From: a virus
Taxonomy: Duplodnaviria; Heunggongvirae; Uroviricota; Caudoviricetes
Strand: one strand, 5' to 3'
Virus record (IMG/VR): IMGVR_UViG_2648501839_000008
DNA length: 64,000 bases
Part shown: one piece after another, positions 22,002 to 39,258 of the stretch
Position numbering within the stretch: position 1 is the stretch's first letter
Layout: each line of letters begins with the position of its first letter
Notes under the pieces: model-generated
What the model was told of the DNA's origin: nothing
The model's database searches: none
The model's input: only the letters and a program-made list of their open reading frames with translations
Program-made: the position numbers and the translations under genes

Positions 22002-22232
22002 TCATTCAACATTGCAACGGACTGATGAGAAAGCACCTACTCCAACCCATCGCCAGTTATAGATGCTACCCGCTTTGTATAAGGTATAGTCGTTCACTTT
22101 TTTAACAGCATATATGGGTATGACTGTCTCCTGTCCACCAATGATAGCCTCACCATAACATATGGGTGTCGGCAATTTCTGACAGCCAGTAAGAGAGAGA
22201 ACAACAGCTATTGTTAGAAATAATCTTTTCAT
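22002..22232 (-). CDS. Small lipoprotein (possible superinfection exclusion / receptor-blocking protein)
   Basis: Signal peptide plus lipobox LSLTGC; 76 aa; sits between tail-fibre and lysis genes. Confidence 0.5.
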   Translation of the reverse strand: MKRLFLTIAVVLSLTGCQKLPTPICYGEAIIGGQETVIPIYAVKKVNDYTLYKAGSIYNWRWVGVGAFSSVRCNVE

Positions 22233-22242
22233 CGTTTACTCA

Positions 22243-22851
22243 TCAGTTATACAGATTTCTATTTATTACCGGTACTCTGCCATTTACGCTAAAACTATGG
22301 CCGCCATTAAGTTGGTTTACGAATATGGAACTAACAGTATTTCCATATGCCGCATATCCATAAACCATTGTCATGGCCCCGCCCGGTACTGGAACCGCGA
22401 ACACATTTGCATATGTTGGGATTATCGCTGGCGGGTAATCAAAAACATGCCCTCCAGAACTGTTCCACTCCGTATTATTAAGAAAGGTAAATGAAAGTGG
22501 GATATTTGCCGTATTATAGATCTCCTCTCCTCGCGCATTGAAAAAACTCATGCCCCAAGTTTCTTTTTTGGCTATACCTTTCGAAAATACGTATATCGTG
22601 GCACTAGAGTCGCTACCCTGACCTCCGAAACTGTAAATCACCTGGTTGTTACGCACTATTCTGTTGGCTATTAATGAAACAGCTTTCGAATAGGCAACAA
22701 AAATCATCGGTGAACGATCTGGAGATATTTGGGTGTTAAACTCTGTCCCGCCAGACAAAGAAACAACCTGCTTTCTCTGAAAAACGATAGGAGACAAAGA
22801 AGGAGACATCCAGACCTTCCCGTCAGATCGATATATCTTGCTTCCGTACAT
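22243..22851 (-). CDS. Tail fibre-associated protein (distal fibre or adhesin), tentative
   Basis: 202-aa ORF immediately downstream of tail-fibre genes. Confidence 0.35.
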   Translation of the reverse strand: MYGSKIYRSDGKVWMSPSLSPIVFQRKQVVSLSGGTEFNTQISPDRSPMIFVAYSKAVSLIANRIVRNNQVIYSFGGQGSDSSATIYVFSKGIAKKETWGMSFFNARGEEIYNTANIPLSFTFLNNTEWNSSGGHVFDYPPAIIPTYANVFAVPVPGGAMTMVYGYAAYGNTVSSIFVNQLNGGHSFSVNGRVPVINRNLYN

Positions 22852-23105
22852 TATTTTTGAAAAACCAATATGTTTAAATTGCCACTAGCTCCAGACCATG
22901 AAATGGTATTTCCAGAAACCGTAAGACTTGTGTATTTCCCATTGGTTACGTCCATTATGTAATAGTCGATTCCCAATCCCGCCTCAACCTCATATGTTCT
23001 ACTTCCAGAACCAGAGGGAGTAAAATAATCGAGGTAATAAACAGGGGCCAACGCATCGACCATCTCCTGTCTTGATGGCGACCATACCTGTGCACCATAG
23101 CTCAT
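22851..23105 (-). CDS. Hypothetical tail-associated protein
   Basis: 84-aa ORF abutting 22243..22851. Confidence 0.3.
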   Translation of the reverse strand: MSYGAQVWSPSRQEMVDALAPVYYLDYFTPSGSGSRTYEVEAGLGIDYYIMDVTNGKYTSLTVSGNTISWSGASGNLNILVFQK

Positions 23106-23165: not shown

Positions 23166-24788
23166 TTATTCTTTAGGTGAATTTAACTTCGTTTCAAGCT
23201 CCTCAACCCTTTTGGTCAATTGCTGAATATGATGAATGAGTGGTACAACCAAACGCTCATACATCACTCCTTCAGCGACCATACCATTTGAGGAAATATC
23301 TTCTGGAGAATCATTATTTGTTGGTTCACGCCAATGGACATATTGCGGGGCAATCTCACCAACCTCTTCAGCAATAAGGCCGTAATACCCCCAATCCTTT
23401 CGGTCACCTCGACAAATTGAACGATACCAAACAGGTCTTAATGACAAAAGTTCATCAGCATATCGATCTTGTAATGTTTCAATATCCTTTTTATAGCGCC
23501 TTGAAGATGTTGAACGCCAAACTGTATTGATACCTGGGTTTGGATCAATGTACATATTGGCACCGCTAGTAGTTGTGCCAATATCCCATATAGCAAACCC
23601 TCCACTACCGCCTGATTTGACAACCAGTGTTTCAGCAATAATATCCAGGTTGCCACTATAGCCTGTCAGTGATGATCTGCTTGCATAGGAACTTAGAAGG
23701 TTTGTTACCTCTGTTTTCGTATAAGCATTAAGGTTAGCCGCAGTCAAAGTAATATCGGCAGAGCCATCAAACGCCACACCAGCAATTTTCCTTGCTGTCT
23801 GCAATTTTGTGGCTGTTGCGGCATTACCAGTAGTATTCTGATTACCGGTTGTATTCACACCAGGGATTGAATCCTTAGCAGTATATACCTGCGCCCACGC
23901 TGACCATGCCGCATCTGTGGTATCTCTTCGTGAGCGAATGAAAACTGGCGCATGTGCACCGCTCGTACCACTCCAGCCAATAAGCAACTCGCCCTCACCA
24001 GCAGCACTCGCACCTTTCATGTGCAATACGTTGCCATACGTGGTCGGGTAGCTATTGTTGTACGCCTCGTACATTTGAATGCCAGCAGTGCCTTGAGTAG
24101 AGCCGCTTAATGCCGTAACTCGGCCACGAGATACCAGTGTATTAATGTTGATATCGCCTGAGCCATCAAACTTAACACCATTGATGTTTCTCGCTGTTTG
24201 CAACTTCGTAGCTGTTGAAGCATTACCGTTCAAACTACCATTTACGCCACCAGTCACATTTAGTCCATTACCAATTGATACCGCACCGCTGGTATTATTA
24301 ATTGTAATAGGTCGCAAACCGTTCCATGAACCTAATGTGTCTCCTGATGCTGTTAGCATGAAATATGTGTTCGATCCATCATTACGGATAAAGAACCCAA
24401 AGCTACCGTAAGCAATGCGGAAACCATTTGCATATTTTGAAATGATCTCGCCAGAAGATGTCAAACCTCCAGATAATGTACCACCGGTAAGAGGTAATGC
24501 ACCGACATCAGAGGCTGTTGGTTTGTTTTTCGTGTTATATACTCTTCGCCATCCCGGAGAATAATCTGTGCCATTAAATACATAGATAAACTCCGCATTA
24601 GTGAGAGCACCAGAGACACTCGTCGTTGTGGCCGTTGTTATACGGATCGTATAATTGTTTGAGCTACTACCGTTATTAAATACCTCTATAACAGCTCCTG
24701 CCAATGGAATAACGCCACAACCAGTTTCACTATTTGGTATGGTTGCACTATTGGCATAGGCCCACGCACTTTGTGTTAAATGCTCCAT
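23166..24788 (-). CDS. Tail fibre protein with C-terminal intramolecular chaperone (peptidase S74-like) domain
   Basis: C-terminal WRSTSSRRYKKDIE ... YGLIAEEV typical of auto-cleaving chaperone domains; shares GNAATATKLQTAR repeat modules with upstream fibre. Confidence 0.65.
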   Translation of the reverse strand: MEHLTQSAWAYANSATIPNSETGCGVIPLAGAVIEVFNNGSSSNNYTIRITTATTTSVSGALTNAEFIYVFNGTDYSPGWRRVYNTKNKPTASDVGALPLTGGTLSGGLTSSGEIISKYANGFRIAYGSFGFFIRNDGSNTYFMLTASGDTLGSWNGLRPITINNTSGAVSIGNGLNVTGGVNGSLNGNASTATKLQTARNINGVKFDGSGDININTLVSRGRVTALSGSTQGTAGIQMYEAYNNSYPTTYGNVLHMKGASAAGEGELLIGWSGTSGAHAPVFIRSRRDTTDAAWSAWAQVYTAKDSIPGVNTTGNQNTTGNAATATKLQTARKIAGVAFDGSADITLTAANLNAYTKTEVTNLLSSYASRSSLTGYSGNLDIIAETLVVKSGGSGGFAIWDIGTTTSGANMYIDPNPGINTVWRSTSSRRYKKDIETLQDRYADELLSLRPVWYRSICRGDRKDWGYYGLIAEEVGEIAPQYVHWREPTNNDSPEDISSNGMVAEGVMYERLVVPLIHHIQQLTKRVEELETKLNSPKE

Positions 24789-27306
24789 TATTTTGCAATA
24801 ACGTCACTAACTGTGCTGTTGTTATTGCTCCGCCATTACTTCCTGTAGTTAACCAACCAGTAGGAGATGCCGGGCAACCTATATTTGCTGGCGACAAGGA
24901 AATATTTGCCGAGCCGTCAAACGACACCCCATTGATAGTACGCGCAGTCTGCAACTTCGTTGCAGTAGCCGCGTTGCCCGTTGTATTCTGATTACCAGTC
25001 GTATTAACACCTGGCAAATTAATATTCGCAGTACCATCAAAGCTCACGCCGCCGATAGTTCTTGCCGTCTGAAGTTTTGTAGCAGTTGCAGCATTACCAG
25101 TGGTGTTCTGATTACCCGTAGTATTTACACCTGGAAGGTTGATATTTGCAGAACCGTCGAAACCAACTCCACCGATAGATCTTGCCGTCTGCAATTTCGT
25201 TGCTGTACTTGCATTACCATTTAATGTTCCGGTGATCCCACCAGTAACAGACAACGGACCTGAAACTGTTCCTCCGGTTGTTGGCAGTGCTCCAATATCT
25301 AACGGCGTCGGTTTCTGATGTGTGCTATACATCGTATAAACAACACCATCGGTAACGCTGGAAGGCTTACTCGCTGAATATGTTGGCGATGTATAAATAG
25401 AAACTGTCGCATTTGCAGTACAATCCCAATGGATATTTACACTAGTCGCATAATTGCCAATCTCAACGTAAATATCATATGTATCGCCGGATGTGTTGAT
25501 CCAGGCGAAATTCGTTAATCCGACGGCTGTACGCTTCCACAAAGCACCGGTAATCCCTTTGGGGTTTCCATTGCCTGCTCGTAGAACCAGTTCTGAAATG
25601 CCTGCCTGATGTGGGGAGCCGACGTTGTAACCAGCGCCACCAATCAATGCGATGTAAACGATGGAACTCGCTTGTGGCATGGTAACCGTAGCCAGTTTGA
25701 ACCACCCAGCCCCGCCAGAGAAAGACATCGTTACTGAATTTAAAGTACCAATATCTTTCGGCGTTAATGTGATATCCGCAGTCAGTGCTTTACCGTTAAC
25801 TTTTCGGTTAGATGGCACCCTGCTATTCGCATTGTCATTGGCTGCTTTAACTGCTTTTGGCGTTGCGGCCAGCGATTCACTGGTGCTGTCGACAGCACTG
25901 CTAAGTTTCACAACACCTTTGGTGGTAAGGCTTGCGTCTTCCATCGCAACGGCACCGGCAATCTCTTCAGCACGATCAGCGGCAGCTTCTGCACGGGTCG
26001 CAGCGGATTCAGCAGCAGCTTTGCTCTGAGATGCAGCCGTCGCACTGCCTGCCGCCTCTGTTGCTTTCGTGGATGCCGTTGAAGCACTCCCCTTCGCAGC
26101 TGATGCCTGCTTGGTCGCCTCATCTTTTGAAGCGGATGCCGAGGTGGCTGATGCAGACGCAGAACTTGCAGATTCAGCAGCTGCCTCTTTAGAGGAAGCG
26201 GCATTATCTTCAGAAGCCTTTGCATTTGTTTCAGAGGATTTTGCTGCCGATGCTGAATTTTTAGCGGCTGTAGCCTGATTCGTCGCCTCAGTCGCTTTTG
26301 CGGTAGCTGTTGTCGCTGACGACGACGCGCTTTCCGCAGATTTTCCTGCCGCAGTTGCACTTGATGAAGCACTATCCGCACTTGCTGAGGCTGCGCTTGC
26401 TGACGCTTCTGCCGCAGATTTCGAACTGTTTGCAGACGATGCACTCTGCCCGGCTGCCGTTTCAGATGCTTTTGCGTTTGTCTCTGACGCTTTTGCTGCC
26501 TTAGACGAATTTTCAGCTTCTGTTGCAAATGATGCAGCCGCGTTTGCACTCGATGAAGCGTTAGTCTCTGATGCTTTGGCTGCATCCTTAGATGCAGAGG
26601 CACTGGACGCAGATGTTGCTGCCTCCGATGCTTTGGTCGACGCTACAGACGCTGATTCTGCTGCCGCTAGATATGCTGATTCTGCGTTCGTTTCAGATTT
26701 TTTCGCAGCAGTTGCACTCGCACTTGCGGCACTTTGTGAGGATGCCGCAGCGGATGCACTTTGAGACGCTTGAGAGGCTTTTTCTCCAGCGGTATTGGCG
26801 CTTTCTGCTGCTGCGGCAGCACTGGCCGCCGCCTCACGAGCTTTGTCACCAGCGGCATCAATCGCGTCAGTGTTATTTTTATACCACTCAACGTTTTCGT
26901 TGTGCTCGTTGACGATCTGCATCAGCGGCTTAACGGTCACTTCTGTACCGTCTTCACGCTCGATTGTCACCTCATCCAGAGCAGTCAACCAACTACGCAT
27001 GGACTTGGAATCAGCCGACATACGCGACATTAGCGCGGTAAAGCGCGCGCTAAACTGTGTTAAGTCGCCTTCATAGGTAGTAATGATTCGGCACGGAACT
27101 TCAGACTGAGTTTCACCGGTATAAGGTTCTGAGAGAACAATGTTCGTATCGCTTGTTACGCGCTTGATCTCATACAGCTTATTGTCGGGGCCAATGACGA
27201 TCATCCCCGGCAACACACCATTAGCTGTTACGTTCCAGGCTGTCCCAACCCCAACCAGAGTATTACTACCCTGTGTAAATGTGATAGTACCTTCCCTGTA
27301 CCACAT
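24748..27306 (-). CDS. Side tail fibre protein, lambda Stf-like
   Basis: Ala/Ser-rich KASETNA repeats and segment AAGSATAASQSKAAAESAATRAEAAADRAEEIAGAVAMEDASLTTKGVVKLSSAVDSTSESLAATPKAVK closely resembling lambda Stf as recalled from memory. Confidence 0.8.
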   Translation of the reverse strand: MWYREGTITFTQGSNTLVGVGTAWNVTANGVLPGMIVIGPDNKLYEIKRVTSDTNIVLSEPYTGETQSEVPCRIITTYEGDLTQFSARFTALMSRMSADSKSMRSWLTALDEVTIEREDGTEVTVKPLMQIVNEHNENVEWYKNNTDAIDAAGDKAREAAASAAAAAESANTAGEKASQASQSASAAASSQSAASASATAAKKSETNAESAYLAAAESASVASTKASEAATSASSASASKDAAKASETNASSSANAAASFATEAENSSKAAKASETNAKASETAAGQSASSANSSKSAAEASASAASASADSASSSATAAGKSAESASSSATTATAKATEATNQATAAKNSASAAKSSETNAKASEDNAASSKEAAAESASSASASATSASASKDEATKQASAAKGSASTASTKATEAAGSATAASQSKAAAESAATRAEAAADRAEEIAGAVAMEDASLTTKGVVKLSSAVDSTSESLAATPKAVKAANDNANSRVPSNRKVNGKALTADITLTPKDIGTLNSVTMSFSGGAGWFKLATVTMPQASSIVYIALIGGAGYNVGSPHQAGISELVLRAGNGNPKGITGALWKRTAVGLTNFAWINTSGDTYDIYVEIGNYATSVNIHWDCTANATVSIYTSPTYSASKPSSVTDGVVYTMYSTHQKPTPLDIGALPTTGGTVSGPLSVTGGITGTLNGNASTATKLQTARSIGGVGFDGSANINLPGVNTTGNQNTTGNAATATKLQTARTIGGVSFDGTANINLPGVNTTGNQNTTGNAATATKLQTARTINGVSFDGSANISLSPANIGCPASPTGWLTTGSNGGAITTAQLVTLLQNNGAFNTKCVGLCQ

Positions 27307-27350
27307 GTTGAATATGCTCCTTGATTTGGTGGGCTATCCTTGCCCACCAT

Positions 27351-27399: not shown

Positions 27400-30300
27400 T
27401 CACAGAAGGCCAATTCTTACTCGTAAGACGTTGTTATCGTCATAAACGTCAATCCGCTGACCATTTATAACCAATCGCCCATTGCCGCCGCTATTACCGT
27501 TGATCTCAAGCGTTCCATTTTTGCCGAACCGCCATCCAGATCTACCGCTAACAAAATTGGTAGATTGCAGATCGCCTACTTTTGCATTGGTGATTGTGCC
27601 ATCCTTGATATACGCACCATTCATATAGGCGATACTGTTTTCGATAACAAATGGCGTGGTGATCTTCCCGTTAACAGAGTTGACCAAACCAAATCTGTCC
27701 GCCTGCACCAAAAACTGAGAAAGACCGGTGGTGTCGATACCAAGCGCAATACCGGCAACATACTTCTGCCCTCCGCTCGTTGAAGTCTCCATTTTCAACG
27801 TCCACGCGGTTGAGACTTTTTTGTTGGTATCAGCAATGGCTGTTGCCTGCTGTTGAATTGTCGCGGTATTTCCATCCACCTCTGCTTTCAGAGTATCGAT
27901 TCGCCCACTTAGAGCATTATCTGCCTGCGTTCTCGCTGTCGTTTCAGTTGTGACCGCCGCAGAAATGTTGGCTGCTGTTTGAGACTCTAAGTTTGTGATT
28001 TGAGTCGCCAATGCCGCATCTTGCTCTGTACGCGTTTTCGTTTCGGTTGCTACAGCCGCTTTAATATCCTCTTTGTATTGAGAGGTCAGCTTGGTGATCT
28101 GAGATGACAACGCCGAGTCAGCATCAGTTCGAGCCTGCGTTTCCACTGCAACGGCCGCACTAATATCTTTCGCAGTCTGTGCTTTTAAACTTGAAACCTC
28201 TTTTGTTAAAGCGGTATCGCCATCTGCACGAGCCGTTGTTTCTTTGGCAAGAGACGCCTCGAGATCATTAGCTTTTGCTGTAAGAGATGTAATCTGGCTG
28301 GACAATGCACTATCGGCGTCAGTCCTTGCCTTTGTCTCTACAGCAACGGCTGCGACAATGTCAGTTCCGGTCTGCGCCCGCAGGCTGTTAATTTCTCGTG
28401 AGAGCGCCTCGTCAGCACTTGCTCTAGCCTCCTGCTCCTGAGTGATGGCGGCGGATATATCACCGTCAACCTTTGCTTGAAGCTGGTTTATTTGTTTAGC
28501 TAACGCAGAGTCTCCGCTCGCACGCGCCTCCTGCTCACTGCGTATTGCAGCAGAAATATCATCATCAACTTTTGCCTGAAGTTGGGTGATCTGGCTTGCC
28601 AGAGCCGAATCTTCCGTTGCTCGGGCTTCTTGCTCTTCCTTAATGGCTGCGACAATATCGTTGCTTACTTTCGACTCAAGCTGAGTTATTTGTTTCGTCA
28701 AAGCTTCATCGGCAGATGTACGAGCCTCCTGTTCTGTACTAATCGCCGCGCTGATATCTCCTTCAAACTTAGATTGCAGCTGAGTGACACGCTTTGCCAA
28801 CGCTTCATCGCCATCGGCACGAGCGGTGGACTCTTCCAGAATACTGGCCTTAATGTCTTCGCCAATTTCTACGCGAATTTCCTCAACCTTCGTGGCCATT
28901 GCAGACATATCATCAGCAAAGGTTTTCTGTGTTGTTGCGATCTTCGCGTTATTGACCATCTGCTTGTGCTGGTCTTCATCTTGACGAAGAGCCAGGTCAA
29001 TATTTGTTTTAGCTAACGCCTCAATGTTCGTAGTCAGTTCTGCACTGGCACGATCGACCTCTGCAACCGTCTTTTTCATTTCTTCAACGGCTGCGGAACT
29101 TTCCTCTACCGTCGACTGCAACACTTCCAGTTGTTTAGCGTTTGCGGCATCACCTTCAACACGAGCCTCGCTTTCCTTAGCAATAAGAGCCGCCGCTTCG
29201 TCTCTTGCAGCCTTTATTGCCTCGACTGTATTAGCGAGAGCTTTATCGTGTTCAGATACGGTGTTTTCGATTTCAACAATTGCAGCATCAGTAGCATCAA
29301 TTTTTTCAAACGCTTCATTGACCTTGTCGATCGTTGCCGAAACCTCACCTTTAAGCTCGGTTTGTGCGTTCTCCAAAGCATCGCTACGCTCGTTGAATTT
29401 TATTTCAAAACCCGCGAGGTTATCGCTGAACTGCTTATCTAATTCAGCTATATCTTCCTTAACGTCGTTTACCGCCCCCTCCAAAGATTCGACGCTCTGG
29501 TTGATATGCTCATTTAACTCGTCAACTGCTTCTTGAGAGGCTTTGCTGTTGATGTCCTCAAGCAGAGCCTGACCAAGCTCGGAAGATGTAATTTTGCCAG
29601 CCAGGAACGACAGTACATCGCGAGTTGTCGCCTCTGTACCCAAGTTTGAGTTCGGAGGGCTTAACATACCTCGCTTGTTCGATGCTCGAACCCAGTAATA
29701 CCACGTTTCGCTATCCCCAAGACCAGCATGTGTAAAGGTGGTGCTTGCAGACTCTGCGATCAGTTTCGCCGTATCCAGATTGTTGGTCTGGGATGCGTAA
29801 ACATTAATGTGATCAAGGTCTACCGAATCTGGATTAACCCAATTCAGTATCACATTACGATAGTCTCCAACGGCCGTTAATGACGTTGGTGCATCCGGCG
29901 GTGTCATTGTGCCCAGCACCTGATAAACGGTACTGATAATTTCTGTTTTTTTACCGTTGAATGAAACCGCATACAGTTGGAAGTCGTAGCGTCCATTCTC
30001 CGCGACATTAACGATTTCGTATTGCTCTTCGGTTACACGCGCCGATTGCCAGTTCGATACATTGTTTTCATCAGAACGTCGCCAACTGATCCAATACTCT
30101 GGAGATTTCCCTTCCCATGTTGCAGTCAGTTTTACTGACAGGTTGCCCGGGCTTGAGAGGTAAGTCCCTTCAGTGATTTGCAAATTAGACGGCTTGGAGT
30201 AAGTCGGGTCCAATACCGTCGTATTCTGCGGGATAAGCGTTGCACCATTGTCGATCGCCTCATATTTAGACGGATTGTTTTCAACAGCGGTGATGTCAAA

Positions 30301-32130
30301 GCTACCCGACGTTTCCCCCTGAGCGATGTTAACGATGCGAACGCGCATAGGTTCGAGATCTGGTTCTGTAATTGTCCAGACACCGTTCAAAACAGGCGTT
30401 TCCGCTGACGACAGAGCTTTTGAAAACGTAACCTTTGTTATGTTTTCGCCAGTTTCAAGAACATCGCGCTCAACGATTTTGCCTTCCTGATTCAATATCC
30501 GAATAAAGCTGCCGCTTTTAGCTAACGACACAGGCGCATCGAGAGTGATGCTGTTTTTGGTAAACTCCACAATTCGACCGGAGTTACGTTTACCTGCACG
30601 ATATTTGTTCTGAATCAGAACGGTTTCACCGGGCATCAGAAATGAGGCGTCTAAGCCGGCAGTAAATGTAATTACATCCGACTCCATTCTGGCGGTATAC
30701 AAAAGCCACAAACCAACTCGGTGAGCCTGGCCTCGGCTTGTACATCCAAATGCTACGACTTCTGTTTTACGCTCACCATAACGGCGCATTGCGTCCTGAT
30801 CTTCAACGTACTCGATGTTTTGCTTATAACCGTCCTCCTTGTTGTTGTAGGTTACGAGCGCAACGGATGGGCGATCTTTACGCGCAGAACCTTTATAGGT
30901 AAACAGTCCATCTTTGACGTTGGAGTTGGTAAACATCATTACTGGATCTGATGGGCTATCCTGCATGATGTTAACCATGCCACCAGCCCAAAACACCATG
31001 CCGCGGAATGCACCGGCAATATCCTGAATTAATCGGTATGCGTCTTGTCGACTGGTGATCTGCGTATTGATTGCAAAGCGTTTCTCTTTACCCCCAAAGC
31101 CATCATCGACCTCTTCGTCACAATATCGACCAATCTGGTAGAGCTGGCCGAGGTCAATCATGGATTCCGACACAAATTGCCCAAGACCATACCGAGTATT
31201 GGTAAGCAAATCGTAGAGAATCCACGCAGGGTTTGAAGAAGACAACAGCTTAAAAGTACCGTCCCATACGCCGACATAAGTATTGGTGTATTCGTTGTAG
31301 TTTGACGGCACTCGAATTTTGATACCGCGCACCAAATACGAACGGGAAGGCATTGTGCTACCAAACTGCTCTGAATTGACCTTTAAGCCAACAAGTGCAG
31401 AGTTAGGGTAGTTCATGGGGGTATCTACAATCTCACCGATGGAATCAACCCAAGTATCGTTGTAGAGGTACTGGCTACTGTTATCATCCGTAAGACGAAT
31501 CACCCGAACCTTGTATGCACGGCCAGGTTTAGGCAGTTTCAGCTCATAGCTACGGTAATACACGCCGGTTTTCTTTGCCGTTAGCGTGATATCAACGCTT
31601 TTCTCACCTTCTGCCACTACATCAGAAAATGTTGCGTCTCCGTTGGCGATCTGGAATTTGTACTTCACCGTAGTGCCATTTGTATCGCCAGAGCTTTTAT
31701 CAACGCTACGTAAAGAGGGGAATTTCATGATGACACGAACGCGATCAGCTTCATCGTTATCGATTGAAACCGTAACGTCGTGTGTTTTTTTAAGCTGAAT
31801 ATTTACGGACTTAGGCGTTTCGACAAAATCAAAACCAGCCATTGGCGTCTGGTCTTGTGAGCCGTCACGAAAATCCCATGTAATACCGCTGAAGTTGGAA
31901 GAGCCATCTTCATTCAAGATCGGTAAATCGTCGATGAAGATCGACTTTGCGCCATTTACCAGGCCACCGATAACCCCCTCGCCAAGAAGGTCGAGGATGG
32001 CTGCCATAGCACGAGAATTTACAGTATCATCAGCTTCAACCGGGGTACGGCTGGAGCTTTTACTTTTCTTGCCACCAGCACCGGCAATAAGAAGCGGTAA
32101 TTTTTTCTTCTTGAACTGTTCCATGTCCAA
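27400..32130 (-). CDS. Tail tip / host specificity protein (lambda gpJ-like) with long coiled-coil repeat region
   Basis: N-terminal region with NPAWILYDLLTNTRYGLG characteristic of gpJ family; about 450 aa of periodic DISAAI...EQEARASADEAL repeats; 1576 aa. Confidence 0.85.
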   Translation of the reverse strand: MDMEQFKKKKLPLLIAGAGGKKSKSSSRTPVEADDTVNSRAMAAILDLLGEGVIGGLVNGAKSIFIDDLPILNEDGSSNFSGITWDFRDGSQDQTPMAGFDFVETPKSVNIQLKKTHDVTVSIDNDEADRVRVIMKFPSLRSVDKSSGDTNGTTVKYKFQIANGDATFSDVVAEGEKSVDITLTAKKTGVYYRSYELKLPKPGRAYKVRVIRLTDDNSSQYLYNDTWVDSIGEIVDTPMNYPNSALVGLKVNSEQFGSTMPSRSYLVRGIKIRVPSNYNEYTNTYVGVWDGTFKLLSSSNPAWILYDLLTNTRYGLGQFVSESMIDLGQLYQIGRYCDEEVDDGFGGKEKRFAINTQITSRQDAYRLIQDIAGAFRGMVFWAGGMVNIMQDSPSDPVMMFTNSNVKDGLFTYKGSARKDRPSVALVTYNNKEDGYKQNIEYVEDQDAMRRYGERKTEVVAFGCTSRGQAHRVGLWLLYTARMESDVITFTAGLDASFLMPGETVLIQNKYRAGKRNSGRIVEFTKNSITLDAPVSLAKSGSFIRILNQEGKIVERDVLETGENITKVTFSKALSSAETPVLNGVWTITEPDLEPMRVRIVNIAQGETSGSFDITAVENNPSKYEAIDNGATLIPQNTTVLDPTYSKPSNLQITEGTYLSSPGNLSVKLTATWEGKSPEYWISWRRSDENNVSNWQSARVTEEQYEIVNVAENGRYDFQLYAVSFNGKKTEIISTVYQVLGTMTPPDAPTSLTAVGDYRNVILNWVNPDSVDLDHINVYASQTNNLDTAKLIAESASTTFTHAGLGDSETWYYWVRASNKRGMLSPPNSNLGTEATTRDVLSFLAGKITSSELGQALLEDINSKASQEAVDELNEHINQSVESLEGAVNDVKEDIAELDKQFSDNLAGFEIKFNERSDALENAQTELKGEVSATIDKVNEAFEKIDATDAAIVEIENTVSEHDKALANTVEAIKAARDEAAALIAKESEARVEGDAANAKQLEVLQSTVEESSAAVEEMKKTVAEVDRASAELTTNIEALAKTNIDLALRQDEDQHKQMVNNAKIATTQKTFADDMSAMATKVEEIRVEIGEDIKASILEESTARADGDEALAKRVTQLQSKFEGDISAAISTEQEARTSADEALTKQITQLESKVSNDIVAAIKEEQEARATEDSALASQITQLQAKVDDDISAAIRSEQEARASGDSALAKQINQLQAKVDGDISAAITQEQEARASADEALSREINSLRAQTGTDIVAAVAVETKARTDADSALSSQITSLTAKANDLEASLAKETTARADGDTALTKEVSSLKAQTAKDISAAVAVETQARTDADSALSSQITKLTSQYKEDIKAAVATETKTRTEQDAALATQITNLESQTAANISAAVTTETTARTQADNALSGRIDTLKAEVDGNTATIQQQATAIADTNKKVSTAWTLKMETSTSGGQKYVAGIALGIDTTGLSQFLVQADRFGLVNSVNGKITTPFVIENSIAYMNGAYIKDGTITNAKVGDLQSTNFVSGRSGWRFGKNGTLEINGNSGGNGRLVINGQRIDVYDDNNVLRVRIGLL

Positions 32131-34668: not shown

Positions 34669-37600
34669 TTAGTTACGTTGAGTGTTTGGGTTGAGTGATC
34701 CGCCAGGGCGTTTCTCTTGAGCGATAGTCTCAAGCGCGATTGCTTTCATCCGTTGAGCGGCATTGTTCCATATGCTTTCTGTATCGCCGGATTCAGTTGT
34801 GCTACCGTCACTATGGACGTTGATCTCAATTGATACCGGAGAAAGAACATTTCCTCCTCCACTCATACCATCGGTACTGAGCGTTACAGGGATTGTTCGA
34901 CCATCAGGCAATGGAACATACGCCTCATTCATATCGCCTTCCCCAAACAACGCCAATTGAGGTGAGTTGGCGATACCGCCTTTCTGGTATGCCCGGAGCG
35001 GGATCACGCCGTCTTTTCCAAATATGCCACCATTTGCAAACTTCGGAATTGCAGGAATACCATTCGTGCCATCGGCAGCAGAACTGGTCAGATTGTTGAA
35101 GCCGGAAGTTGAGCCAGAAGAACCGGACATCAATCCATCGAATCCACCACCAGCCCATACTGAAACCAAACCAGATGCAACTGTCGCGCCGAAATTCAAC
35201 CACTTATTACCAGAGCCGGAAGCATTAGCTCCAAGCATTGCAAACGCGGCTGACAGAGCGCCGGTAACAGAGCTGAGATTCTGCATCGAGAAGATGGAGT
35301 CCTTCACTGCTTTTGTCTCAGCATCTTTGGCTTCGGTGCTATCAAATAGCCCCGATACCCAGCTACCAATCGCATTTGTTGCTGTGCCAATTGCGCTGGT
35401 GGTCTGCTGTGTTGTTTGCCCCAATCCAGTTACCGAACTGGACGTCTCCTTCGTGGCTTCTCCTACCGACTTGTCGCCATTAACAGTGTTGCCCATTCGT
35501 ACACCTTGATTGGCAACGGCAGAAGCAACCCCGGTCAGCAAATTGCCACTCTGTGAACTACCAGCTGCGGTGGTTCCCATCCCCAACATGTTCATTAGAG
35601 GCAGCGTGATTTGCGACTTCACGACCATATTGGTGATATCTTTCAAAATGGACTGAGATAGGCTGGAGAAGCTCATCTTCCCGTTAATAACGAAATCAGT
35701 CAGGACATCAGTTAAGCCACTAAACAAATCAGTCCAGGTGCTTTCAATCTGCTCTGCCAGGTTTTCGTATTCCAGTGCCAACTTCTGCGTCGCAGTCCCC
35801 GTCTCTTTAATAAGCGCGGTATTGCCAGCAGCAATAAGTTGATTGATTTTCTTTGTATAAAGCGCCACGACTTTAGGATCAGACGCCTTATCACGAAGTT
35901 CTATCAACGCTTTGAGATTGCGGTTGTAGGTGTCTTCGAAATCAGCAACTTTCTCTTCACGAGACGGCGTATAGCCAGCACTAATAATGGAATCCGCCTC
36001 CGGTGCCCAAGTGGAGATCATCTGCTCAACATTGCGGCGATTAAACATCTCGCGATATTCAGGTGTCGCATTTTTGAGGTCTTCAAGACGTTTTTTCGCC
36101 TTGTCGATCATCTCTTGAGTGATGAACTCGTTAGGAACCGCATTAGCCAAATCAGTTAGCGATTTCGTTGTATCGCGAAGAGACTGATCAAACGATACCG
36201 TAGCCTTAGAGCTTTCACCCATTTGCCCCATAAGCTGATCGGCTTTATCCAGAGCCTTCTGATATCCGGCCGCCAGTTTCTGTTGCGCTGCCTGTTCTTT
36301 CTTGGCCGCACGCTGCGAGGCATTAGCTGATCGTTGGGCTGCTTTCTCGGCGGCTGCGGCATCCTGTTCACGAGCTTTAGTCAGTGCGGCAATGGCTGCG
36401 GCACGCTCTTCATCGCTCATTTTCTCCAGAGAGCTGGCACTGGATGCTTTCTGCAAATTAAGCTGCGTCTTGAGTTGTTTAGGCCCAATAATCGGCTTAC
36501 CTTCGAAGTCCTTCATCGGAGTGCCATCAGGCAAAGTACGCTGATAAGTCGCAGAATCCATCTGGTTTCGCATATATTGCGCCAGCGCCTTCTGAGCAGC
36601 TTTATCAGTTGTACCTAACCCAAGAACCGTCCCCTGGTTTGACATTACGCCCTTACCAGTTTTGGCCGCGTTATCTCTCTCGAACTCTGCCTGTGTCAGT
36701 TCCTGAGCAACGGCTTCCAAATGCTCCTGATAACCACGAATACTGCCTTGCAGTTTCTGGATTTGCTCGGTATTGCCATCTTTTTTGGCTTTTTCAAGCT
36801 GATCATTAAGAGTCGCTATTTGCTTCTCGGTAGCATTCTTACGAGAAGAAAGTGAATCAACCAGTTTTTGCGCAGGCTCCAGATAGCTTTTGTTTACCGT
36901 TTCACGTAACGGTGCCAATAGCTTGTTCTTTTCGTCATCTGAAAGTGAACCGTCATCATTGATTTTCTGGATCTTATCCAGAGCCTCCTGCCGGGCTTTC
37001 ACGAATGTTGCCGCGAAAATCTGGTTTTCCGCTCGAATTTTCTCAATCTGAGATTCGGCAGCCTCTTTAGCCAAACGCTTTGCTACAGCGCCGTCACCAA
37101 GAGCTATCGTGCCGGTTATCTTTTGATACTCTTCCTGATTTTTTTTCAGGCGTGCTTCGATGTCAGCCTTCGACTCTTTGTGAGTAATAACACCGGCAGA
37201 GTTAGATACGTAATTAACACCCTCACCAGTTTTTAATGCTCGTTGATCAGCAAGAATCTGCTTTTCGAGCTTTTCTGCGCGGTCGGCCATTTGTGCACGT
37301 TTGGCCGCTGTCATCGCTTCTGGTATTTTCCTAATCTCGTCAACGACCTTTGAAGTTTCGCTGCGGAGCATGGTCATGTACGTGATTAGGCCAGCAACAG
37401 CTACAGTGGCAACTGTAAATGCTGCCCCTATAGGGTTTGCTGCAATGAACGCCGTTAATCCTGCAAAAGCGCCTTTCAGCCCCGTAATCGCCCCACGGAT
37501 GGCGAAAATGAGAGAGGGGATCGGAGCCAACCCCATACGTGCCGCACGATTGAATCGAGTTACTGCTGTAGCGCCGAGGTTAAATGGAGTCTGTATGGCG

Positions 37601-39258
37601 GTTGCCATCGTGGCGAAGGTACTAACCATCTGGCCGCCAGCACCAACTACGCCCATAATCCCTGCACGCATCAGTTTGAACGCAACCATCGCGGCCACGA
37701 CCTTACCGAGATTAATTACCAGCTCTTGGTTCTTTGCTAACCATTGAGCAAGCTGACGCAACCCATCGATTGCCGTCGTTAACCCCGAACCTAAAGAATT
37801 AGCAAACGAAATCCCTTCGGCGCTATTCATGATTGAAGCCAGTTCTTTCATCCCCTTCGATAGAGAATCCAGATATCCGGCCTGACCAACCCGATCAGCA
37901 AATAACGTGAATGACGTCTGAAGTTGCGCCAGCGCACCTGTGTAGGTTTGCATCATGTCTTTCGCTGCGTTCTCATTCTCCGCACGCAGACCAACAAACA
38001 TCAGAGACAACGCCTGTTTTGCCTCAACCGTACCGCTGGCAACGGCTTTAGTCAGTTCCCCCATAGTGATGCCTGCGGCGTCTGCCATTGCCTGCATCGC
38101 GTTAGGAACGGCTTCACCTAATTGCTGACGTAGCTCTTCCATTGACACGACGCCCTTACCGGACATCTGCTGAACGGCCACAGCCGCACGTTTCAACAGC
38201 TCACTATCACCACCAAAACGAGCAACGGAGTCCACCAGCGCCTTCAGAGAGCCATCGGTTGGATCTAAGCCAGCAGAACGAAACTTCACGAAGGAATCTG
38301 TTAACGCCTGCATCGCGAACGGCGCATTTTGAGCCATGTCTACGATGTACTTCATGTCATCGGCGGCAGCCTGGCCAGGGTTAGACTTCTCCTTATTCAA
38401 CCCACGAAGCATCACCCGCATACGTTCCATTTCGGCCGCAGCTTCAACAATAGGCTTCTGCCATCCAAACATGATGTCAGTAACCGTTCTGGCTGCATCT
38501 CCGATCTCGCCAAGCAGGAAAATGTTGCCACGAAGGCCAGAGAACATACCTCCTTCGTTACTTTTACCGCTATGGCCAGAGCCGCTACGCCGCCCGCTGC
38601 CACCATCGCCACTGCCAGATGTACGAACGCGTACCGGCTTGCTAATCAGTTGCTGACGTCCGATAACTTCGTCCATCTGCTCACGAACCTTTTTCAGTCC
38701 CTCGGCAGCCTGGCTCGTTGTGACACCCCAATTACTGAGTCGCTTCGTCGTGGTATTAAGGCGCGTATTCATGCCACTCACGGACGCAGAGGCCTCTTTG
38801 ACCTCCGTACCAAAGCGGCTTGCGCTTTTGCTTGCATAGGTCGACCAATCAGAGAAATCATTTAGCTCTGATTGCACTTTACGTAATGACGCGGTGAGTT
38901 TATCTACTGAAGAAGTTGTCGTATCGACGCGCTCAATCAGGGCTTTAAGACCAGAATTGAGGCTGGTGATGTTACCACGCATTTTACGCGTAGCATCTGA
39001 AGCAAGCTCAAAACCGGCAGCTACATCCTGTAGTTTATCTGCCGTAGAATCGAGCTTGCTTTCCAGAACGCGAATGATACGGGCGACCGAACCCAAAGAG
39101 CGTTCAAAGGTTTGGATTTTTTGAGCAGGCTTTGTTACCTGCTCACCAAATCGAGTAAGCAGTTTCCCCGCACGATCGATTGACGCTGTAAACTGTTTGT
39201 CTTCCAGCGACAGGATAAACTCTACGTTTTGTGACATTCCCTTGTCATCCTCTGCCAA
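34669..39258 (-). CDS. Tail tape measure protein
   Basis: 1529 aa, coiled-coil rich with Gly/Ala-rich hydrophobic central segments; downstream of G/T chaperone genes. Confidence 0.9.
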   Translation of the reverse strand: MAEDDKGMSQNVEFILSLEDKQFTASIDRAGKLLTRFGEQVTKPAQKIQTFERSLGSVARIIRVLESKLDSTADKLQDVAAGFELASDATRKMRGNITSLNSGLKALIERVDTTTSSVDKLTASLRKVQSELNDFSDWSTYASKSASRFGTEVKEASASVSGMNTRLNTTTKRLSNWGVTTSQAAEGLKKVREQMDEVIGRQQLISKPVRVRTSGSGDGGSGRRSGSGHSGKSNEGGMFSGLRGNIFLLGEIGDAARTVTDIMFGWQKPIVEAAAEMERMRVMLRGLNKEKSNPGQAAADDMKYIVDMAQNAPFAMQALTDSFVKFRSAGLDPTDGSLKALVDSVARFGGDSELLKRAAVAVQQMSGKGVVSMEELRQQLGEAVPNAMQAMADAAGITMGELTKAVASGTVEAKQALSLMFVGLRAENENAAKDMMQTYTGALAQLQTSFTLFADRVGQAGYLDSLSKGMKELASIMNSAEGISFANSLGSGLTTAIDGLRQLAQWLAKNQELVINLGKVVAAMVAFKLMRAGIMGVVGAGGQMVSTFATMATAIQTPFNLGATAVTRFNRAARMGLAPIPSLIFAIRGAITGLKGAFAGLTAFIAANPIGAAFTVATVAVAGLITYMTMLRSETSKVVDEIRKIPEAMTAAKRAQMADRAEKLEKQILADQRALKTGEGVNYVSNSAGVITHKESKADIEARLKKNQEEYQKITGTIALGDGAVAKRLAKEAAESQIEKIRAENQIFAATFVKARQEALDKIQKINDDGSLSDDEKNKLLAPLRETVNKSYLEPAQKLVDSLSSRKNATEKQIATLNDQLEKAKKDGNTEQIQKLQGSIRGYQEHLEAVAQELTQAEFERDNAAKTGKGVMSNQGTVLGLGTTDKAAQKALAQYMRNQMDSATYQRTLPDGTPMKDFEGKPIIGPKQLKTQLNLQKASSASSLEKMSDEERAAAIAALTKAREQDAAAAEKAAQRSANASQRAAKKEQAAQQKLAAGYQKALDKADQLMGQMGESSKATVSFDQSLRDTTKSLTDLANAVPNEFITQEMIDKAKKRLEDLKNATPEYREMFNRRNVEQMISTWAPEADSIISAGYTPSREEKVADFEDTYNRNLKALIELRDKASDPKVVALYTKKINQLIAAGNTALIKETGTATQKLALEYENLAEQIESTWTDLFSGLTDVLTDFVINGKMSFSSLSQSILKDITNMVVKSQITLPLMNMLGMGTTAAGSSQSGNLLTGVASAVANQGVRMGNTVNGDKSVGEATKETSSSVTGLGQTTQQTTSAIGTATNAIGSWVSGLFDSTEAKDAETKAVKDSIFSMQNLSSVTGALSAAFAMLGANASGSGNKWLNFGATVASGLVSVWAGGGFDGLMSGSSGSTSGFNNLTSSAADGTNGIPAIPKFANGGIFGKDGVIPLRAYQKGGIANSPQLALFGEGDMNEAYVPLPDGRTIPVTLSTDGMSGGGNVLSPVSIEINVHSDGSTTESGDTESIWNNAAQRMKAIALETIAQEKRPGGSLNPNTQRN

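Follow-up and report, generated by a model that had tools for sequence, protein, structure and literature searches.

Does the minus strand between positions 23166 and 27306 of the window, the 64,000-nt stretch of phage DNA analyzed here, encode two tail fibers, or one? Two long open reading frames (ORFs) overlap there. We conclude, with a probability of about 0.87, that the region is a single side tail-fiber gene of an SSU5/pHCM2-like E. coli phage-plasmid whose reading frame was broken by a 17-nt deletion. The features on which this reading rests are as follows.

23166..27306, minus strand: whole side tail-fiber gene as read here, now 4141 nt and frame-broken, ancestrally 4158 nt (1385 aa)
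24748..27306, minus strand: ORF1, 852 aa
23166..24788, minus strand: ORF2, 540 aa, in the +1 frame relative to ORF1
24768..24770, minus strand: site of the 17-nt deletion (about 24769), from MAFFT alignment with loci L003-L005 and blastn against phage Cyrano and plasmid pLH09-a-C
26710..27306, minus strand: conserved N-terminal region, the presumed virion-attachment part
25941..26856, minus strand: Ala/Ser-rich low-complexity shaft (39% Ala, 24% Ser)
25801..25956, minus strand: motif shared with the Mu S N-terminus (KGVVKLSSAVDSTSESLAATPKAVKAANDNAN; PDB 8ju3/5yvq), restored residues 451-502
24474..24939, minus strand: Mu S'-homologous domain (8ju3_A), restored residues 790-950, spanning the deletion site
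24300..24608, minus strand: T4 gp34 C-terminal trimerization-type domain (PF21446; PDB 4uxe/5nxf)
23508..23683, minus strand: distal tip segment, preceding the predicted cleavage site and opening a swapped C-terminal cassette
23169..23507, minus strand: Peptidase_S74 intramolecular chaperone domain, ORF2 residues 428-540

Origin of the two reading frames

In every relative examined, the locus is one open frame of 1341-1432 aa (12 relatives: Cyrano, seven E. coli plasmid loci, and four draft-genome contigs; L001, L003, L006-L011, and L015-L018). The Cyrano fiber is one 1341-aa coding sequence (CDS), and the three closest plasmids, pAVS0968-B, pLH09-a-C, and pRM13322, each carry one CDS of 4158 nt, 17 nt more than the gene span in the window. 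Over 4.1 kb, these plasmids and the window are separated by three private substitutions and one 17-nt gap, which lies at the ORF overlap. Across full-length plasmid and E. coli matches, the record span exceeds the aligned query by up to 17 nt, and by exactly 17 nt in the three closest. The deleted coding-strand sequence, GTCATGGATTGCTCGAT, is flanked by GT/GT microhomology, and its loss both deletes the SWIARC codons and changes the frame. These six residues fall in a conserved stretch, where Mu S' has YWMCKG in the alignment.

The products of the two ORFs follow this lesion residue by residue. ORF1, preceded by a Shine-Dalgarno sequence (AAGGAG, 27317-27322), consists of ancestral residues 1-846, six out-of-frame residues (CVGLCQ), and a stop, while ORF2 residues 8-540 are ancestral residues 853-1385 and its first seven residues are out-of-frame ORF1 sequence. 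Inspection of the sequence upstream of the ORF2 ATG revealed no Shine-Dalgarno sequence; this ATG is a fortuitous out-of-frame codon. The overlap noticed in the original prediction does exist between two long minus-strand ORFs, at 41 nt with the stop codon rather than 40 nt, and it is the footprint of the frameshifting deletion. Of the 1385 positions of the PHROG 3299 profile, ORF1 matches 1-847 and ORF2 849-1385; the DNA thus belongs to this family, and in the disrupted gene no one polypeptide covers the whole profile. The Mu S' structure aligns continuously across the break (restored residues 846-853), which lies inside a conserved folded domain and not at a domain boundary. These properties, together with 12 intact single-ORF orthologues and a gap exactly at the overlap, are those of a frameshift-disrupted gene (pseudogene).

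An error of sequencing or assembly in an intact molecule would produce the same picture. None of the listed complete plasmids and genomes has the gap, and the three readable contigs with the split allele match the window without a difference over 6.5-9.6 kb, so that all gap-bearing contigs might trace back to one strain. Against an error, the 852+540 ORF pair was found on 12 contigs, which may not represent independent isolates, including the NCBI assembly JHRQ01000015.1 and a separate Logan assembly of SRR19671076. (The protein-cluster listing does not contain the exact ORF1 sequence; we used the contig search because the contig DNA confirms the allele.) Furthermore, the 17 nt are complex sequence, unlike a homopolymer-type error, the microhomology at the gap ends fits a real deletion, and all remaining indels in the ~29-kb structural block relative to pLH09-a-C are in frame. 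We regard an artifact as improbable and the split allele as real.

Could the two ORFs instead be separate, co-translated genes for proximal and distal half-fibers, as in T4 gp34/gp37, that overlap by design? The original prediction took this view, and both ORFs are long, are annotated as separate proteins by gene callers, and include one present in NCBI (ORF2, WP_248842562.1). However, none of the 12 intact relatives has two genes here, the split is a gap relative to near-identical alleles, the break interrupts a single folded domain, and ORF2 has neither a ribosome-binding site nor an in-frame beginning, all of which makes a two-gene design very improbable. We give no more credence to programmed +1 ribosomal frameshifting or coupled re-initiation restoring a functional full-length or two-piece fiber, and reject it: the ORF2 frame is open for ~55 nt ahead of the ORF1 stop, so that shifting within this stretch would yield a protein of nearly full length, minus six residues, but direct reading of 24748-24803 revealed no recognizable +1 shift site or stimulatory Shine-Dalgarno sequence, the lesion is very recent, the two-ORF arrangement is conserved in no relative examined, and the missing residues belong to a conserved stretch.

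A recurrent split elsewhere in the gene was suggested by entries of 695, 689, and 691 aa, named "chaperone of endosialidase," in the 90% cluster of ORF2, one of which sits on about 200 contigs. In all four contigs with such short entries that we checked, the full 1385-aa frame is open. Gene callers truncated these entries at the start codon, probably because long spurious ORFs run through the Ala/Ser-rich region in other frames; this also accounts for the shorter PGAP CDSs in L008-L011. As a separate observation, the tail genes of SSU5-like phage-plasmids are repeatedly struck by deletions and IS elements, with recurrent IS insertions in the fiber and J genes of relatives.

Repeat modules and cassette exchange

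The original prediction also described a ~22-aa module shared by both ORFs and encoded by near-identical DNA. The module is real, but ~28 aa long (GNA(A/S)TATKLQTAR-I-GV-FDGS-(N/D)I), and is often preceded by PGVNTTGNQNTT, in which case the period is 40 aa (120 nt). It occurs five times, three times in ORF1 (M5 to M3) and twice in ORF2 (M2 and M1), given below in a 126-nt register together with the exchangeable segment between the last two copies.

25129..25254, minus strand: module M5 (LSVTGGITGTLNGNASTATKLQTARSIGGVGFDGSANINLPG)
25009..25134, minus strand: module M4
24889..25014, minus strand: module M3
24138..24263, minus strand: module M2
23739..23864, minus strand: module M1
23865..24137, minus strand: exchangeable M2-M1 cassette (LVSRGRVTALSG...WSAWAQVYTAKDSI)

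The back-translated TATKLQTAR pattern has these five matches and no others in the 64 kb (0 matches in 100 shuffles). The claim of near-identical repeat DNA did not survive alignment: the 77-nt module cores share 70-78% identity with the reference copy, identity in the 126-nt register is 54-75% (31-50% at third codon positions), and the longest exact run between copies is 8-14 nt. What is conserved in the repeat is the protein sequence and not the DNA, and no long near-identical DNA tracts connect the module copies. Because exact shared runs do not exceed 14 nt, recombination between copies within the gene should be inefficient. Pfam searches with E values up to 1 gave no model for the modules, and ORF1 alone had no Pfam match. 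A search of solved structures gave only a marginal match below significance, the C-terminal stalk of phage L Dec (6e3c, E = 0.085), whose sequence, NAETADKLSTARTI...SFDGSANV, is suggestive; the modules are probably units of a trimeric beta-helix.

Across phages, the modules act as joints for the exchange of fiber cassettes. Divergence starts right at a TATKLQTAR core in Cyrano (just past that of M2), in plasmids L008 and L009, and in a chromosomal Rac-like prophage, the mosaic junctions of L008, L009, and chromosomal prophages lying directly after the M4 core (about 25059). In place of the M2-M1 cassette, Cyrano carries an unrelated one (AFARRAT...YKNGGL). Cyrano, L006, and L007 have had the C-terminal cassette replaced in one piece, with homology ending at about 23683-23684, and the shaft segment 26170-26706 exists as two alleles among the relatives that are 56-80% identical to each other. 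All eight aligned relatives keep the N-terminal region at 93-100% identity, while downstream segments vary. Lambda stf DNA matches part of the shaft at 71% identity, and a chromosomal relative with a different C-terminus has tfaR. The earlier proposal that the repeats favor recombinational switching therefore holds for exchange of cassettes at modules, but not for recombination between copies within the gene. Phage-plasmids and chromosomal lambdoid prophages have swapped fiber cassettes at the TATKLQTAR module, and the comparison is a clean natural example of this.

The C-terminal chaperone and likely consequences of the split

The original prediction of a self-cleaving, chaperone-type C-terminus is supported by profile, sequence conservation, and fold. 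ORF2 residues 428-484 match Pfam PF13884 over profile positions 1-57 of 58 (28.9 bits, gathering cutoff 22), and the restored protein scores 27.2 bits. S428/S429, Y432, and K433 (alignment S63, S64, Y67, and K68) and the motif GLIAEE are invariant in 41 homologues. The Ser/Lys pair of endosialidases has a +5 spacing, and S428/K433 is the candidate catalytic pair here. In an AF2 model of a 175-aa segment (ORF2 366-540), pLDDT is mostly >90 for residues 70-170 (ORF2 435-535), with block means of 92-97 for residues 71-170. The top 11 Foldseek matches to this model are all intramolecular chaperone (ICA) entries, including 7dc3 (E = 1e-5), 3gw6, and 3gud; their TM-scores are moderate (0.4-0.6) because a monomer model was compared with intertwined trimers. 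The fold search was needed because phmmer with the C-terminal 175 aa against PDB gave one marginal match, a T5-like L-shaped fiber (E = 0.02). Next to the chaperone, the distal tip, which may bind the receptor, was modeled by AF2 at low confidence. Farther upstream, the trimerization-type domain matches PF21446 at E = 1.8e-29 (ORF2 residues 61-163).

In the intact 1385-aa protein, an N-terminal part that may serve virion attachment would be followed by the Ala/Ser-rich shaft, a beta-structured modular shaft (the five modules interspersed with the Mu S'-like domain, the gp34-type trimerization domain, and the M2-M1 cassette), the distal tip, and the S74 chaperone, which would drive trimer folding and then cleave itself off at Ser1273 (ORF2 S428). 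In the window, the S74 domain is cut off from the N-terminal 846 residues. The deletion inside the Mu S'-like domain ends ORF1 in six junk residues and puts the distal 533 residues into the +1 frame, where the ATG ahead of them occurs by chance and has no ribosome-binding site. Without the C-terminal chaperone and tip, the ORF1 product is likely unable to form a working fiber, and the ORF2 product, if made at all, likely has no virion anchor; some low-level translation of ORF2, starting at its ATG or internally, is conceivable. Virions would then likely be without functional side fibers and reliant on the central J fiber, while plasmid maintenance is likely unaffected.

There is a slim chance that the split is more than decay, in that side-fiber loss was selected or that ORF2 is a free, self-trimerizing receptor-binding protein with a role of its own. 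Work on lambda suggests that fast adsorption is costly in some settings. If these ideas were true, side-fiber loss would be favored in lineages living mainly as plasmids or in dense communities, and free ORF2 might block receptors against superinfection. Both ideas are compatible with the finding of the allele on 12 contigs and with the repeated IS insertions in the fiber and J genes of relatives.

If the locus is one broken gene, as we prefer, the main value of the analysis is a correction: gene callers and reading by eye both make two "fibers" out of it, and RefSeq already lists ORF2 as a protein of its own. In host-range prediction and phage engineering, the element should be treated as side-fiber-defective; a working fiber sequence is available from the intact, 99.9%-identical relatives.

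Comparison with known fiber systems

Every part of the gene can be assigned to already known kinds. Cassette swapping at modules and damage to tail genes by deletions and IS elements are likewise known, and the locus opens no new question. The gene is an ordinary, mosaic side tail-fiber gene. Its closest counterparts are the side fibers of SSU5-like phage-plasmids (PHROG 3299), which occupy the same locus between a J-type tip fiber gene and lysis genes, such as WP_370469519.1 of pAVS0968-B (a "tail fiber domain-containing protein" in RefSeq) and CYRAN_21 of Cyrano. In three such plasmids the gene is about 99.9% identical in nucleotide sequence to the window outside the gap; domain order and the five modules are the same, and the 17-nt frameshifting deletion is the window's. 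Cyrano differs in its M2-M1 cassette and in a C-terminus that is not of the S74 type.

The solved S74-type or auto-cleavage domains (K1F endosialidase 3gw6, GA-1 neck appendage 3gud, T5-like L-shaped fiber 8hqz, and MyRF ICA 7dc3) share with the window's domain the C-terminal position on a trimeric fiber, the Ser/Lys pair, the GLIAEE motif, and the fold, although sequence identity is low (12-21%) and cleavage is only predicted for the window's domain.

Swapping of cassettes at conserved motifs is classically described for the fibers of Mu (S/S'), P1 (S), P2 (H), and T4 (gp34/gp37). The window's fiber shares domains with Mu S/S' (E = 1e-37) and the trimerization domain with T4 gp34 (E = 1e-29), and little beyond the modules with P1 S, 9g, JenK1, and HdSG1. 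In contrast to the mosaic fibers of Mu, P1, P2, and T4, it has no invertible segment and no separate assembly chaperone, and it differs in its N-terminus and in its virion context, that of a siphovirus phage-plasmid. Modular fibers contain mobile domains (bioRxiv 10.1101/2024.10.28.620165).

Downstream of the fiber gene lie genes for an 84-aa PHROG 557 protein, a 202-aa PHROG 425 protein, and Cor; no tfa-type assembly gene of the kind that goes with lambda Stf, Mu S, or P1 S fibers follows in the window, and NCBIfam gave no matches for the restored fiber or for the 84-aa and 202-aa proteins. The split itself resembles the stf frameshift of laboratory lambda, which, according to PMC12617516 (citing Hendrix and Duda 1992), prevents side-fiber synthesis. 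In lambda PaPa, as compared with Ur-lambda, a siphovirus side-fiber gene is likewise split into two ORFs by a frameshift, and the virions rely on J alone. Lambda uses a separate Tfa protein, whereas the window's fiber uses an intramolecular S74 chaperone, and here 17 nt were deleted in a plasmid-prophage lineage that occurs in nature, in which the side fibers would likely have been lost in the same way.

The interrupted fibre gene

The window is DNA of an E. coli phage-plasmid that resembles SSU5 and pHCM2, with Escherichia phage Cyrano as its best phage match (~90% identity) and with structural genes collinear with those of plasmid pLH09-a-C (~98.5% identity).

Features of the window
27400-32130, minus strand: J-type gene (central tail-tip fibre), upstream of the fibre, 1576 aa; the protein's C-terminus is a long extension of repeated coiled-coil-like units (…DISAAI..EQEARA..D.AL...I.QLQ.KV…)
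27328-27348, minus strand: hairpin with a perfect 7-bp stem (GGTGGGC-aaggata-GCCCACC) in the 93-nt gap between J and the fibre, directly upstream of the fibre ribosome-binding site
27306..24748, minus strand: ORF1, 852 aa
24788..23166, minus strand: ORF2, 540 aa, in the +1 frame relative to ORF1
25908-26603, also, for example, 25661-26029 and 26592-26912, other frames and opposite strand: long spurious open frames, the largest 231 aa, within the Ala/Ser-rich stretch of the fibre gene
22002-23105: genes for an 84-aa protein (PHROG 557), a 202-aa protein (PHROG 425; given as 188 aa by RefSeq in relatives) and Cor, downstream of the fibre and followed by holin, endolysin and spanin genes
6575-7228, minus strand: four-tRNA cluster (Ser-TGA, Thr-TGT, Tyr-GTA, Asn-GTT), the same four being annotated in pLH09-a-C

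The original prediction read ORF1 and ORF2, which overlap by 41 nt, as two tail fibres. Comparison with relatives, which have a single frame at this position, indicates instead that the two ORFs are one fibre gene. Cyrano is annotated here with one 1341-aa fibre, and each of the three closest records (pAVS0968-B, pLH09-a-C and pRM13322) with one 4158-nt CDS, to which the window is 99.4% identical with the gap counted. The distance from the ORF1 start to the ORF2 stop is 4141 nt, which equals 4158 minus 17. In a four-way alignment with these plasmids, the window has only 3 private substitutions and one 17-nt gap, located directly after window base 24770 and exactly within the ORF1/ORF2 overlap; the missing nucleotides are GTCATGGATTGCTCGAT on the coding strand, with GT/GT on the flanks. 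In each of 12 relatives scanned (L001, L003, L006-L011 and L015-L018), a single frame of 1341-1432 aa stays open from MWYREGT to the end.

PHROG 3299 (1385 positions) is matched by ORF1 over positions 1-847 and by ORF2 over positions 849-1385. Relative to the ancestral 1385-aa side tail fibre obtained by filling in the deletion (the restored protein), ORF1 agrees to residue 846 and then adds six out-of-frame residues (CVGLCQ), ORF2 begins to agree only at its residue 8 (restored 853), and residues SWIARC are lost through the deletion. Restored residues 790-950 align with the solved Mu S' fibre (8ju3) as one unbroken stretch, which puts the deletion inside a folded domain and not between domains. 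An AAGGAG sequence lies 10 nt upstream of the ORF1 ATG; no purine-rich element was found upstream of the ORF2 ATG (aaaataATGgag), which arises from reading ...QNNGAF... out of frame.

Twelve contigs encode both the exact 852-aa product and the exact 540-aa product, among them NCBI JHRQ01000015.1 (110 kb) and the Logan assembly of SRR19671076; fetched stretches of carrier contigs are identical to the window, and ORF2 is present in RefSeq (WP_248842562.1). No other frame-breaking indel relative to pLH09-a-C was found in the ~29-kb structural block, where the only other length differences affect the tape-measure gene: 18 nt, in frame, and a deletion of 3 nt. The former (35077-35121) is a net difference that appears as a cluster of small gaps, the latter lies at 38581, and the tape-measure placement of both is taken from the pLH09-a-C annotation. 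The window assembly is not noisy. Given the same gap in NCBI and Logan assemblies and the clean structural block, we treat the deletion as a real allele of one lineage, of which the 12 carriers are possibly non-independent isolates.

Tail genes are often damaged among related phage-plasmids. In pAVS0968-B (L003 7818-11318), J carries an interrupting IS66-family element, and in pTW10722_119 (L008 5459-6459) only a partial J is annotated. Insertion elements lie under or beside the match to the fibre in four plasmids of 100.5 kb (IS2) and in CP091407 (IS66). Annotation is affected as well: the spurious frames of the Ala/Ser-rich region seem to make gene callers add a minus-strand ORF and start the fibre late, which results in 695-aa 'chaperone of endosialidase' entries on ~200 contigs, where the full 1385-aa frame is nonetheless open.

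Module repeats and cassette exchange

The back-translated TATKLQTAR core has exactly five sites, all within the fibre gene (in coding order, M5, M4 and M3 in ORF1, and M2 and M1 in ORF2), and 0 hits in 100 shuffles; the module is real, far beyond chance. Three of the modules form a tandem array that repeats every 120 nt (TRF score 315, 75% matches). The repeat DNA, expected to be near-identical, is only 54-75% identical between modules in a 126-nt register, with 31-50% identity at third codon positions and longest shared exact runs of 8-14 nt. Amino-acid identity between modules reaches up to 88%. These values suggest that the modules are old duplications, the likeness of which is maintained by selection on the protein. 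Because RecA-dependent exchange generally requires longer exact matches, recombination between modules within the fibre gene should be rare. The module motif also occurs in Dec, the decoration protein of phage L, in its C-terminal stalk (PDB 6e3c chain C residues 89-131; NAETADKLSTARTI…SFDGSANV), a marginal match to the module consensus (E 0.085) which hints that the module may be a three-stranded beta-helix unit used outside tail fibres.

Modular exchange fared better: the modules appear to mark exchange points of fibre cassettes, with divergence beginning at TATKLQTAR cores in Cyrano, L008/L009 and L021. A 60-nt sliding comparison with relatives revealed a patchwork along the fibre gene: a conserved N-terminus, an Ala/Ser shaft that comes in two allelic forms, a substituted M2-M1 cassette in Cyrano, and a substituted M4-to-junction region in L008/L009, both of them longer by 141 nt. 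Followed base by base, Cyrano parts from the window just past the M2 core, and homology resumes at the M1 linker PGVNTTGNQ. L008/L009 diverge just past the M4 core into an AFARRAT...YKNGGL...YRSSRDGYGFE cassette, and a cassette of the AFARRAT...YKNGGL type is found after M2 in Cyrano. In L021, a chromosomal Rac-like prophage adjoining tfaR and pinR, homology (88% identity over residues 205-764) ends at the same M4 core and is followed by an AFARRAT-type cassette and a separate Tfa chaperone. The fibre of another chromosomal prophage, L022, lacks the entire gp34-domain/M2/cassette/M1 block.

In Cyrano, L006 and pWP4-S18-ESBL-07_2 (L007), the last 172 codons, including the Peptidase_S74 (S74) intramolecular chaperone domain, are replaced by a non-S74 end (...GQWLKFAGTVGATSN); the swap point (~23683) is 18 codons past M1, outside the module. 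None of the 84-aa, 202-aa and cor genes occurs in Cyrano or pWP4-S18-ESBL-07_2, both of which have the non-S74 end, yet L006, with the same kind of end, retains the 84-aa and 202-aa genes.

Such mosaicism is well known from the fibres of Mu, P1, P2, lambda and T4. The fibres of P1 (S), 9g, JenK1 and HdSG1 have little in common with the window fibre beyond the modules. A preprint (bioRxiv 10.1101/2024.10.28.620165) describes mobile domains of modular fibres as well as C-terminal swaps between S74 and lectin.

The C-terminal chaperone and the fate of the fibre

At the ORF2 C-terminus, the Pfam Peptidase_S74 score exceeds the cut-off, and an alignment of 41 homologues shows no or almost no variation in the motifs STSS-x-x-YK and GLIAEE. 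Because of the conservation of STSS-x-x-YK, we place a candidate catalytic pair at S428 and K433 of ORF2 (restored 1273 and 1278). The AlphaFold model is confident across the domain, with the MyRF ICA domain, the endosialidase intramolecular chaperone and the GA-1 chaperone as top structural matches. Pfam, motifs and fold thus support a chaperone-type domain, for which self-cleavage is predicted ahead of restored S1273 and would leave a fibre with ...VWRSTS as its end. Overall, the S74 domain and the modular exchange of the original prediction stand, whereas neither its two fibres nor its near-identical repeat DNA stands up.

The closest S74 homologues, in E. coli phages orkinos, BEBK14, PeterMerian and Jahat_MG145 (~48-51-kb contigs), carry annotations as free-standing proteins 168-231 aa long; one (from the set P0036, P0041, P0048 and P0051) is named 'putative lateral tail fiber chaperone'. 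They are either genuine separate genes or truncated calls.

All components are of known kinds, and RefSeq already includes the gene in intact form. Beyond the directly observed domain content and order, lesion and mosaic junctions, we infer that an intact fibre would attach by its N-terminus, with trimerisation starting at the C-terminal chaperone and proceeding backwards, after which the last 113 residues would be shed. In the window allele, the ORF1 product would be without chaperone or tip, and ORF2 would be without a ribosome-binding site and an anchor; particles would carry no side fibres and would rely on J. This putative side-fibre-less, J-dependent state matches that of laboratory lambda, in which, as stated in PMC12617516 (citing Hendrix and Duda 1992), an stf frameshift abolishes the side fibres.
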